64,000 bases of DNA, taken from the NCBI GenBank assembly GCA_010015805.1, contig ML978130.1, forward strand, positions 62,001-126,000, in the 5' to 3' direction. This stretch comes from Rhizodiscina lignyota (lineage: Eukaryota). The stretch's first letter is position 1; every line of letters begins with the position of its first letter. The position numbers and the translations under genes are program-made. The notes beneath the pieces are model-generated. The model made no database searches. It was not told where the DNA came from and saw only the letters and a list, made by a program, of their open reading frames with translations. Positions 50,576 through 63,309 of this stretch are shown one piece after another.

Positions 50576-53500
50576 TCACTCATCGACTTCCATCTTAGCA
50601 TCACTGTCCTGAGCACTGTCATCGTCGGTCGATGCGTCAGGCTCCTCCATGAAAGCATCTTCGAGGCTGCGCCGATCCGAGTCCATGTCGTCCTGGTCGG
50701 TGGCAGTAGTGGTGTTGCCGGTGGTCTGCTGGTTGGGCCTCACCGCCGGGTCCAATAGCGAGAGCTGCCTGGCGTAGTTCACGAGGATGTTAGTCTGTAG
50801 CTTGTCCACTTCCATCTCCGTGGCCGTGCTCCATGCCAGCTGCTTCATCTCCTCCTTGGTGAGAGGCTTTGCCTTGGGTTCCGTGGATGGGTCGTGAGGT
50901 GCCTGCGCAGGGCCTTGTGGGGGAGGAGTGTCGCGACCCTCGCGGGCAATAGCCATTGCGCGATCTTGATCCAGGAGCTGCGGGTCGATGTTAGCGTAGA
51001 TCCTCTGCTGCTGCGCAGGCGAGAGGCCAGGGGGGCGGATGCCGCATTCGACTTCCAGGCGGTAGATGTGCGCTTGGATAAGCGCCAATTCCTCAGCGTC
51101 GAGGCTGCCGGGGAACTGATCGAATGCGTTCCTCACATTGTCGGCGCAACTGCAGCGACGGCGATGACCACATCCCTTGCGTTCAACAGGCATTTTTGAT
51201 GATGATGGGCCTGGGAATAGTTTGTAAACTGACGGTTGATGAAATCTGTAATGGGTGTCGACGGTGCAAAAGTTGGCGCGCACGTTATGCTGCCCGACCC
51301 GTGAACGGTCCTGGACAGGGGAACGATTGTGTGAAGACCGATGGTTTGGAAAAGATGGGGGAATGGAACGGTTAAAAGGGGAACGGCCGCTATGGGGTTT
51401 CCTTATGCGGTGATCCGTTTGATAGTGTTGAGGAGTTTTCAACGGCGATTGATCTGAACTAGTTTCAACTTCGGACGAGACATCAATGGAGGAATTCGTG
51501 TTATCTCCATTTATCGAACGATTGTTGGCTCGCCAATGCTTTCTCTCTTTAGGCTTCTTGCTTTCTCTGGGGTTGAGTGGTACTGCGGGAGTGGCATAAT
51601 TCATCGAATCCGAGAGGTCATCCCGGCGAATCTGATGTGCCCTCCAATCGGATGGGAGTTCCGGACGCTTCGATTTCGCGGAACCTTTTGCTCTTGGCAT
51701 CGATGAAGAGTGCTCAAGGCTTTTCTCAACTGAGGAGAGTCTGTTGAGTTGCGTAGCGAGCGGTGTTTGCCGGGGATCCTTCCCAACTACGATGTCTTCG
51801 CCATTATGAGGAGTTGCTGCGCCAGTGCGTTTCCTTGGACCTGGAAGTTGTAGAGATCCGATGGATGACTTATCCTCATTCCTCTGGAGAACTTGTTTAT
51901 CCTTTGAGCGACTCGTATGCCCCTTCTTTGACTCTGGTGTGCTCTGCAAGGAACTCGACGAATTCGTCCACCGACCCTTGCCCCGGCGGGGAGTAGTCTT
52001 TCGCCAAAGCTTCAACTTCTCTTCTGGCATCTCATCCGTGAATACTGTCTGCTCGAGAAACGAGTTGAACTGTTCTGACGCAATCTCTCCCCATTTATCT
52101 TTCTCCGCAGGCTTCTGCGAGTCGAGGACTACCGCGCTGTCACGCCGCCTGCGATGTGCCTCGCCGCCTGCCTCATTTTGCAATCCTGCCTCTGCAACAC
52201 CCATATATGCCGCAGACTGTTGTTGTGGAGACTCCCCAACATCGGTCATCATACGCACTGTCATTGGCCGCGGCATCATCACCATCTCAGGTTGTGTAAC
52301 ATTGTAGAGTTTCCTCTCCATTGCATGTCTGCTCTCATTTGCCTTGCGATACGTGCTGAAGACATCGTCGTGCATCTCCTGCGCCGACTGCTCGAAGTCA
52401 GAGAGTAGGTGTATCTGAGGCGGTTGATAATGGAGCTGTGGCTCGGGCGGAGAATGCGACGGTCGGTATTCGTCTGGTAGAGGAGACACGTCCGGCTCGT
52501 CGCTGTCGTAGTCGTAGTCGTAATATGCCCTTGCGGTGCCTTGGACGCGTACGCTATTCTGGGAAAGAGCACGAAGGACAGTTGACGCGTAGGTCTTCAA
52601 TGTGGGTGCAGATCGAAGCGTACACTCTGGGCGATGTGGCCGTACGCGTGGGAGTGTTGCGCTGTAATACTCTTGTGGCTCGACACATTGCGGCCAAACC
52701 TGCGGCAGCAACATTAAGTTGATACGGCAGCGCATGACGCGCTCGAATCGTACGCCGTCTGGAAAGCGCTTGACGGCCACGGTTGTAGCATCAATCGTAC
52801 AAATGCGCTGGCCTCCGTGAACGCTCATGAACTGATGAGGCGGATATCGTACACTGGCGGACGCAACCACGCGGTACGCTTGAAGTGAGCGATCCCACAA
52901 GAACTCGAAGCCATCCGACTCAACATGGTGCTGAGTATCCAGTTCAAAATCTTCGTATTGCTTGCTCAACTCAACCTCTGTGAAGCGAGGGCAGAGGAAG
53001 AATTCTTCACTGTCTTCGACACAGTTCTGCAAGTTCAGAAACACCGGCAATGGTGGTGTCCAGGCAACATAACTCTTTACCCTCACGTTGTTTGGGTAGC
53101 GGTACTGTGGGAATAGTTGCACTGTGAACTTGCAGGAAGGCGGTGAGCCACCGATGAAGCAATCATAAGTGGTAAGAAGGTTGCAGACGGAGTCGTGTGG
53201 GTGCTTGGGACCCGCAAGCCATTGGTACTGAACAGGCGCGTGACGCTTGAAGTGGTTGATCATAGACTCGACGAGATACTGCGTGTCAATCGAGAAGACT
53301 GCAGAGCCAATATCTTTGATGAAAGTCGTAAAGTCGCGAGCGCGTCGCTCGCGTTTCTTGGCTGGCACTTCCTCTGCGTCTAACGAAGTGAGTTGTACAG
53401 TTAAAATTAAGAGCTTGGAGAAGATTACCAGCTTCAGGGCAGGAGTCCTTGAAGCTTGAAGTGAGGACTCTGGCGATGTATTGCTCCACTACGGTTTTGA

Positions 53501-56429: not shown

Positions 56430-60043
<3,614 letters not shown>

Positions 60044-61633: not shown

Positions 61634-62130
61634 ACGAATCACGAACGTCCTTCGAGCCATCTGCAAGACCTCGGGCCTTTTGTCCCTATCGAGAATCTTA
61701 TATGGATATGGAGCCCGGTATGTAGAATTTGACGGCATGGCATACGGCGTCCTGGGCATCTACAAAGGCGAACTTGACAGGCAGTCATGCGTTTGTTGCG
61801 GAGCGTGCATCGTATACCTTGCAATGACTGGATAGCAGTGGTGAGATACGTGTTCAATATGGTTTGCGATATGTATCTTTAGCTACACGCCTTTTATGAA
61901 GCTTTGCTGCTCCGGACAATGCTCATGAGAAGTCGTCTTGAAACGCCTCCTATCGCAGTCTCTTGCAATAACCGCTGTGAGACTTCAGCGATTCAGAGGC
62001 CAATTGTAGGTGCAAATGCCTCGATTCATTGATTAATCTTCACAAAGCCATGAGAAACTCCCCAAGCGCATCAATACTCTCTTCGTCAACCTCCCGCAAC
62101 AAGGCAGAAGTATCAATGAAAAAGTTGAGA

Positions 62131-62325
62131 TGGTAGCCAGCAAAAATTACGCCAGTGAAGCCCCCGAAGGAGATTCATACCAGTCCCACTCCACGTTGTG
62201 CAATGTAGGCGGAACTGATAGAACGACCGTCGTGTTGATCACGGTGTTCCCAACAAGGTCTGTGAGAATTGTCAGCAAAAAGTTCGAAATTTTCGGGGGG
62301 GCGAGGCAACTTGACGTACAAGTAT
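62131..62325 (-). ncRNA. U1: U1 spliceosomal snRNA interrupted by a 60-nt spliceosomal intron (62260-62319)
   Basis: Exon 1 ATACTT (62325-62320) plus exon 2 ACCTTG... reconstitutes AUACUUACCU. SL1 has the 10-nt loop GAUCAACACG (62231-62240); SL2 has the U1A-type loop AUUGCACAAC (62195-62204); SL3 has a UUCG tetraloop; Sm site AAUUUUUG (62141-62148). The 3' end is approximate. Confidence 0.92.
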
Positions 62326-62363
62326 GAGAGAAAAGAAAGCGCTTTCTGAGCGCGCGAGGGCGG

Positions 62364-62371
62364 CTTATAAA
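62364..62371 (-). promoter_or_regulatory. TATA-like element upstream of U1 snRNA
   Basis: TTTATAAG on the minus strand ~40 nt upstream of the inferred U1 5' end, followed by a pyrimidine-rich stretch before the start. Confidence 0.5.
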
Positions 62372-63309
62372 GAGCTGAGCGGCGAGCTTGGACCATGAGA
62401 CGGGAGCTTGGGCCAATCCAAGACTACGTCACGGGTGACGCTAGGCCGCTAGAGAGTAGAGAGAAGCCGCGGCACACGCACCGACGACAAAAGAGTTGGC
62501 AGCTAAGATGTAAAGCCTCCATCGTGTAGCTGACAAAGTGGATAATGCTCTGTCCCTTACTGTTACATACACTCCAAAGGACTTAGGATCGAGCTTTCGG
62601 AGACACGCTCACTTATCTGCTCGCCCGACTGCTATCTATTTTTGTCACCGAGTTGTCACCGAGGCACGCTGGTAGGACAGATTAGGGCCATGGACAAGGG
62701 AAATCATTTTGAAGGCGAGAATTGGATTGAAATTTGTCTGATACATCTTACACTACTGTGCCGGCATTCACCTGTAAAGGCGGTGACCAAGGCTTCTCTT
62801 CTTATGCCCAAGTCGTACTCTGAAAAGTCCGAGATATCAGCGACACTCGAGCTTCAAGCCAACAGCAGCACCTACATCAAGCTACACGAACAACTGGGCA
62901 TTTCTCTGAGTATCACGATATAAGCGGAATACGTTATCGGAGTTCCATAATAGTCGAATGGGACCCTTTATTCGCTTAGTGAACAAGCACTCACCTCCTC
63001 CGCTGCATTCGTGTGTGGCTAGGAAGTGCATCACCGAGCGAGCCGAGGAATACCGCCATCTCGGTTTGCGGGGCCTTATACAGCTCACATTTCTTCAACA
63101 GCATCAACATCTCTCTTGCATGACCTTGAATCCGCTTTAAAGCGGCCGCTCTTCTCTAAAACACGTCCATGTGATACATTTGCCGTGCAAATTATCTACT
63201 GCTGCATCCGAGCAAGTCGTCATCAATCTCACGCGACCTCCGAGCTCTCCTTCATCTCTCTACACGAACACATTTCCTTACCTTCCACTGATATCAGGAA
63301 CTCGCAAAA

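Follow-up and report, generated by a model that had tools for sequence, protein, structure and literature searches.

A U1 small nuclear RNA gene of a filamentous ascomycete with its splice-site-pairing arm predicted to be split by a spliceosomal intron

The window, i.e. the whole 64-kb stretch of DNA that was analysed, carries on its minus strand a locus for which the best reading, and on sequence comparison a highly probable one, is a U1 gene with its 5' arm interrupted after nucleotide 6 by a spliceosomal intron. This was also the core of the first-pass annotation of the same DNA, which described a U1 arm split after nucleotide 6 by a canonical intron, and it now has strong comparative support from related loci in addition to support from U1 paralogs. 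Splicing of the window copy itself is predicted on the same comparative grounds.

Results

Anatomy of the interrupted 5' arm

Read on the minus strand, the U1 5' arm opens with AUACUU, and these six nucleotides make up exon 1 at 62320..62325, assigned by reading of the sequence. ATACTT (62325-62320) is directly followed by the donor GTACGT (62319-62314) of a predicted GT-AG spliceosomal intron of 60 nt at 62260..62319, also on the minus strand, the assignment of which draws on the sequence, on shuffles, on relatives and on a paralog junction. The branch motif GCTGAC lies at 62276-62271 (CTGAC at 62275-62271), the branch A being 12 nt away from the 3' splice site, whose CAG acceptor occupies 62262-62260. 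The remainder of the 5' arm follows from 62259 as ACCTTG, such that the insertion point falls between nucleotides 6 and 7 of the arm that pairs with 5' splice sites. The general GT-AG intron form GTNNGT...YAG is present here as GTACGT...CAG, and a by-eye reading of the sequence finds the donor complementary to the U1 arm at 5/6 intron positions. The coordinates that the first-pass annotation gave for ATACTT, GTACGT, GCTGAC, CAG, ACCTTG and the 60-nt intron are all correct to the base. Exon 2, the U1 body, occupies 62131..62259 on the same strand on the basis of the Rfam model RF00003, folding and covariation, with its 3' end at ~62131 being approximate. A first exon of 6 nt is extremely short for spliceosomal splicing, and this is counted against the best explanation.

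The spliced RNA was built in a script by joining 62325-62320 to 62259-62131, giving 135 nt. By a scripted count, the arm agrees with the 11-nt Rfam consensus at 10/11 positions in the spliced form and at 6/11 in the unspliced form, and nucleotides 1-11 of the spliced RNA are predicted to be unpaired (P 0.79-1.0). A U1 arm, i.e. AUACUUACCU, single-stranded and complementary to 5' splice sites, is predicted only once 62319-62260 has been removed.

Identity and fold of the U1 body

A search of the whole 64-kb window at Rfam gathering thresholds returned no matches. At permissive thresholds, RF00003 (U1) gave a match of 48.1 bits to 62265-62110 on the minus strand with the genomic, unspliced sequence as query, short of the gathering score of 69.5, a cut-off for scores that does not stand for any biological feature. 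The E-value of this match was 4e-11 when 451 nt were searched and 5.7e-9 over the whole window, and it was the sole Rfam match at E<=0.01 across the window; a second match, to PART1_3 at E 0.42, was dismissed as chance. Within the alignment, AUACUUACCUG of the model stands opposite UCACAGACCUU, which comprises the last six intron bases plus ACCUU, indicating that the unspliced gene lacks the arm, as had been stated for the unspliced RNA in the first-pass annotation.

The stems proposed at first reading, i.e. SL1, SL2 and an SL3 closed by UUCG, are all present in the sequence, as is the Sm site. On the minus strand, SL1 has the stem GAAC/ACCGU...ACGGU/GUUC with a loop GAUCAAC... at 62240-62234, SL2 reads UAUCAGUUCC...CAUUGCAC...GGGACUGGUA with its loop CAUUGCAC at 62205-62198, the UUCG loop of SL3 is at 62168-62165, and the Sm site AAUUUUUG is at 62148-62141. 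Both exon 2 alone and the spliced RNA give MFE folds that form a four-way junction of helix H with SL1, SL2 and SL3. The SL2 motif CAUUGCAC and the Sm site AAUUUUUG match exactly, and the SL1 loop of the window, GAUCAACACG, keeps GAUCA with two later positions off the consensus GAUCA.GAAG. Rfam SL4 aligns poorly in the window, and a short hairpin is found after the Sm site in some relatives; the mature RNA of ~135 nt would be one with no clear SL4. Compared with canonical U1 (RF00003), the locus is alike in its spliced 5' arm, helix H, SL1-SL3, the loops GAUCA and CAUUGCAC and the Sm site, but differs in its sub-gathering score, the lack of a convincing SL4, the SL1 loop GAUCAACACG and the interruption after nucleotide 6.

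Related loci carrying the split arm

A metagenome scan with the pattern ATACTTGTNNGT-N35-65-AGACCTKG-N10-18-GATCAA recovered 14 loci, 11 of them distinct, every one of which continues into a U1 body; the split arm, insertion position, GTNNGT donor and AG acceptor of these relatives are at least partly set by the search pattern, and intronless relatives lie outside its reach. Collapsing of duplicates (L004=L008=L014; L002=L009) resulted in 12 distinct sequences including the window. RF00003 matched 13/14 loci at 31.6-50.4 bits (E<=6.5e-5), beginning at the acceptor, and all 14 sub-threshold matches, i.e. those of the window and of the 13 loci, are consequently 5'-truncated. The first-pass annotation had anticipated that standard annotation would miss or truncate such a gene, which agrees with the zero matches at gathering thresholds and with the start of the permissive matches at the acceptor. 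As covariance models at curated thresholds miss these genes and permissive matches to them are 5'-truncated, the U1 genes in the fungal group of the window are probably subject to wide mis-annotation.

Several features that were not demanded by the pattern are shared by all 12 distinct sequences, namely a single CTRAC in each intron, its A positioned 9-14 nt from YAG, a pyrimidine ahead of the acceptor AG, and TC immediately 5' of ATACTT. Intron lengths among the distinct loci range over 54-69 nt. Averaged over all sequence pairs, exon 2 is conserved at an identity of 0.70, the intron at 0.45 and the 80-nt stretch upstream at 0.34 (with the row for the locus L012 lowered by a second intron, described below), and the intron alignment shows that the sequence just 5' of ACCT varies among loci. 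This retention of splice signals while the intron sequence drifts points to an intron under selection for splicing. Exon 2 of the window is 53-86% identical to the metagenome loci, compared with 78-94% identity of U1 genes across Aspergillus species as tabulated in PMC2377427 (Table 3), such that the loci span well over one genus. Judged from these comparisons, the intron position is old and common to many diverged relatives.

Besides the intron after nucleotide 6, L012 carries a second GT-AG intron of 58 nt (GTAAGA...CTAAC...CAG; contig JAABUP010000683.1, L012:562-619) in the 3' strand of SL3, with its branch A 13 nt from CAG. When this second intron is removed in silico, the Sm site comes to lie at its usual distance of 119 nt, and the identity between L012 and four other loci, 0.52-0.56 beforehand, rises to 0.69-0.77. 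The interruption of SL3 accounts for L012 being the only locus of the 14 without an Rfam U1 match.

For covariation, exon 2 was aligned up to the Sm site across 11 distinct sequences, with L012 and three duplicates excluded. The RNAalifold consensus had 39 pairs, of which 19 showed compensatory changes; a helix over the Sm site (columns 117-127) was discarded from it as spurious, leaving 36 pairs. In the 36-pair consensus, 94.9% of cells are paired and 19/36 pairs show compensatory double changes, the consensus structure having been derived from the same alignment as was used for the covariation test. None of 500 shuffles equalled the consensus, and slid controls yielded 3-5 such pairs.

The conservation of the intron also bears on an alternative in which the intron is real but the functional product is the unspliced or slowly spliced precursor, acting for example as a decoy 5' splice site close to the cap that titrates U1 snRNP, or as a reserve to be drawn on once splicing capacity increases. 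Such a role would suit a donor that is 6 nt away from the cap and complementary to the U1 arm at 5/6 intron positions, as well as an intron that is kept in many lineages though intronless copies (see below) show that its loss is possible. However, an intron identity of 0.45 beyond the splice signals gives no sign of an extra functional element, and a functional precursor is considered very unlikely.

Promoter, 3' region and local gene context

The predicted transcription start is the A at 62325, which follows TC, and a TATAA box at 62365..62369 on the minus strand lies 44 nt upstream of this predicted first transcribed base. A regular-expression search found a TATA-like motif 37-46 nt upstream in 8/12 distinct loci. 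Further upstream of the TATA box, motif search found GGYCCAAGCT twice on the minus strand as a direct repeat, at 62405-62414 and 62385-62394. These are the only two matches in the window (shuffles gave a mean of 0.33, with at least two matches in 3/100), and the L004/L008/L014 locus has one copy at the corresponding position. These repeats may constitute a candidate snRNA-type proximal promoter element.

On the 3' side, RNAalifold identified an imperfect hairpin of ~47 nt (CUUUUUC.UUGAU..CUGC-loop-GCGG..GUUGA..GAAGAG) at 62078..62124 on the minus strand, flanked by CTTTTCATTGAT-like and GAGGAAGAG-like arms and situated 15-40 nt 3' of the Sm site. The hairpin is kept in all 11 loci for which the regular expression gave an anchor (L012 gave none), shows compensatory changes in its apical stem, occupies the equivalent place in L001-L011 and L013, and is not equal to Rfam SL4. 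It is a candidate signal that probably directs 3'-end formation or processing.

The neighbouring gene, at 57228-59960 on the plus strand, was assigned from its 732-aa open frame by protein matches as a UBP15/USP7-type ubiquitin hydrolase, the best named matches, among proteins of 1282-3660 aa, being from the filamentous ascomycetes Periconia (63%), Penicillium (54%) and Verticillium (49%). On these matches, the window was assigned to the Pezizomycotina. Continuity of its open reading frame indicates a 57-nt intron at 59382-59438 with the donor GTATGT and a CTAAC branch motif whose A lies 12 nt from TAG; in this one local comparison, the intron is built like that of the U1 gene. The window also contains, at 50576-53488 on the minus strand, a low-complexity 970-aa open frame rich in Ser, Pro and Gln.

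U1 paralogs in run X1

Run X1, which bears the kind label '?', comprises 34.2 Mb of contigs of up to 303 kb at a flat depth near 150, and its flank contigs show zero differences from the window. Given the total size, the flat depth, the long contigs and the difference-free flanks, X1 was read as DNA of apparently the same genome. Nineteen X1 contigs aligned to 61700-62800, and the paralog contexts described here come from 8 of these 19. The assembly is interrupted within the U1 gene, which is to be anticipated when a gene is repeated, and a reading of summed contig depth as copy number was rejected as unreliable.

Among the contigs listed, two match exon 2 and then, past 62259, read the reverse complement of ...CTTTTC-ATACTT, such that ATACTT directly abuts ACCTTG in both and the predicted exon junction exists as genomic DNA. 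One intronless contig is 11,878 nt long at a depth of 151, with 8 differences over 105 nt. Two further contigs carry introns: a contig of 35,381 nt (10 differences) keeps the acceptor region and has a different intron, with a CTAAC branch motif, upstream of 62267, and a contig of 101 nt has a near-identical intron (1 difference) and diverges upstream of 62335. The genome has at least three intron-bearing U1 contexts, including at least two besides the window copy, together with at least two intronless contexts. For the predicted splice sites, the intronless paralog junction is the strongest support short of RNA.

The same junction weighs against a reading in which there is no intron, the RNA instead beginning close to the acceptor, its 5' arm being an unusual one (..CACAGACCUUG), and ATACTT-GT further upstream being a coincidence. 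This would be compatible with the alignment of the unspliced sequence over positions 1-166 of the Rfam model at 48.1 bits. Nonetheless, the split pattern ATACTTGTNNGT-N35-65-AGACCT has one match in the 64-kb window and occurs in 0/100 dinucleotide-preserving shuffles, and ATACTT-GT...YAG-ACCT recurs with well-placed branch motifs in 14 loci. Moreover, the bases just before ACCT are unconserved among loci, and ATACTT is joined straight to ACCTTG in a paralog. A gene with no intron is, on this evidence, scarcely credible.

With an arm split by an intron as the preferred reading, the intronless paralogs have consequences for how far U1 supply would depend on splicing. The first-pass annotation had proposed a search for an intronless U1 paralog, the presence of which was one half of one of the conditions that it said would count against its reading, and at least two such contigs are found in X1. 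Its further suggestion, that U1 maturation would depend on the spliceosome in a possible autoregulatory loop, is weakened, since with intronless copies in the same genome the whole U1 supply of the cell need not depend on splicing of the intron.

A related possibility is that the window copy is a silent or decaying U1 paralog, with functional U1 supplied by the intronless copies present elsewhere in the same genome. The bases that most paralog contigs carry at 62234 and 62232 make up the consensus SL1 loop GAUCAAGAAG, whereas the window, with C at both positions on the minus strand, reads GAUCAACACG; these two differences place the window in the minority against 3-4 paralog contigs, and the window copy could be a minor or decaying variant. 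However, SL1-loop positions 7-10 are variable among the metagenome loci as well, and the TATA box, the TC/A start, the splice signals, the stems, the Sm site and the downstream hairpin of the window copy are all intact. The same genome also contains at least two more copies with an intron, and the 11 distinct intron-bearing genes elsewhere keep their splice signals despite drift, which argues for selection on splicing. A silent window copy is regarded as unlikely.

Discussion

With the gene read as a U1 whose arm is split after nucleotide 6, the locus would belong to a small set of U1 genes in a filamentous ascomycete of the Pezizomycotina. Polymerase II would start at the A at 62325, directed by the TATA at -44, a TC/A initiator and two GGYCCAAGCT repeats, and the resulting capped precursor would begin with an AUACUU exon of 6 nt that runs straight into the 60-nt intron. 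Pre-existing U1 snRNP would recognise the donor, and the spliceosome would join AUACUU to ACCUUG, creating the single-stranded 5' arm AUACUUACCUU for pairing with 5' splice sites, while the remaining RNA would fold as a normal U1 core of helix H, SL1, SL2, SL3 and the Sm site. The mature U1 would be ~130-135 nt, with its 3' end set via the downstream hairpin, and the intronless U1 copies would act as a floor of supply independent of intron splicing. Transcription, capping, the share of the window copy in the U1 pool and a regulatory role of the intron are, in this scheme, all deduced from DNA. Any feedback would be positive and not homeostatic, as less U1 would lead to less splicing of pre-U1.

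The U1 gene of Rhodotorula hasegawae has introns described as lying "in conserved sequences" (Takahashi, Tani and Ohshima 1996, J Biochem 120:677, as cited in PMC5855946), and at the level of that description it resembles the window locus in having an mRNA-type intron inside conserved U1 sequence. The two differ in phylum, R. hasegawae being a basidiomycete yeast and the window locus that of an ascomycete, and in the window U1, so far as the description allows the two to be set side by side, the intron is common to many diverged ascomycete loci and coexists with intronless paralogs. More generally, the window shares with the known intron-containing snRNA genes, i.e. U1, U2, U5 and U6 of R. hasegawae and U6 of Schizosaccharomyces pombe, an mRNA-type intron within conserved snRNA sequence. 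The R. hasegawae U1 intron is reportedly also located in the region that pairs with 5' splice sites. Introns in U6 of S. pombe and many other fungi, and in fungal U3 snoRNA, are described in review passages (including PMC5855946) as lying near functional sites, with reverse splicing often invoked; these are canonical spliceosomal introns too, but in another RNA and at another site.

Among filamentous ascomycetes, the account of Aspergillus fumigatus U1-1 and U1-2 (Joechl et al. 2008, PMC2377427) gives a 132-nt cDNA, a 130-nt Northern band and two gene copies, i.e. a U1 close in size to the 130-135 nt predicted for the window. Tables 1 and 3 of that account (PMC2377427) list genomic spans of 180 nt at chr1:1991385-1991564 and 179 nt at chr4:3279813-3279991 against the 132-nt cDNA, which would fit an unnoticed intron of about 48 nt; this is a lead only, and no mention of an intron was found in the main-text sections examined. 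A full-text literature search, with most subscription journals outside its scope, found no report of a U1 intron for filamentous ascomycetes. Introns in snRNA genes are known; what appears to be unreported for this fungal group is the occurrence of a U1 intron, its conservation and its family context.

According to PMC2241894, an artificial intron placed in Xenopus U1 sends the spliced RNA to the mRNA export pathway, and for this reason a natural U1 intron, together with its location close to the cap, merits study. A more far-reaching reading is put forward tentatively, as a possible but improbable one. The intron after nucleotide 6 would be ancient in much of the filamentous ascomycetes and under selection, and part of the U1 snRNP output would be conditional on splicing capacity, with intronless 'starter' paralogs as the floor, an arrangement of positive feedback or licensing and not of negative autoregulation. 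The position 6 nt from the cap would be the sole place barring an exon-junction complex, so that the RNA would escape marking for mRNA export, and AUACUU would be the shortest natural 5' exon that is routinely spliced.

If the predicted splicing is true, the RNA that finds 5' splice sites would itself depend on recognition of a 5' splice site in its own precursor, just six nucleotides away from the cap, and the gene would provide a test, in tractable fungi, of the minimum length of 5' exon that the spliceosome accepts in vivo. It would also bear on the proposed origin of snRNA introns by reverse splicing at RNA-RNA contacts, for which U1 is an awkward case because it departs before catalysis, exiting the spliceosome ahead of active-site formation in the relevant passages of a review (PMC5855946). 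Splicing would further raise the question of how a spliced snRNA avoids the export fate of an mRNA, and mixed families of intron-bearing and intronless U1 genes might serve to tune the supply of U1.
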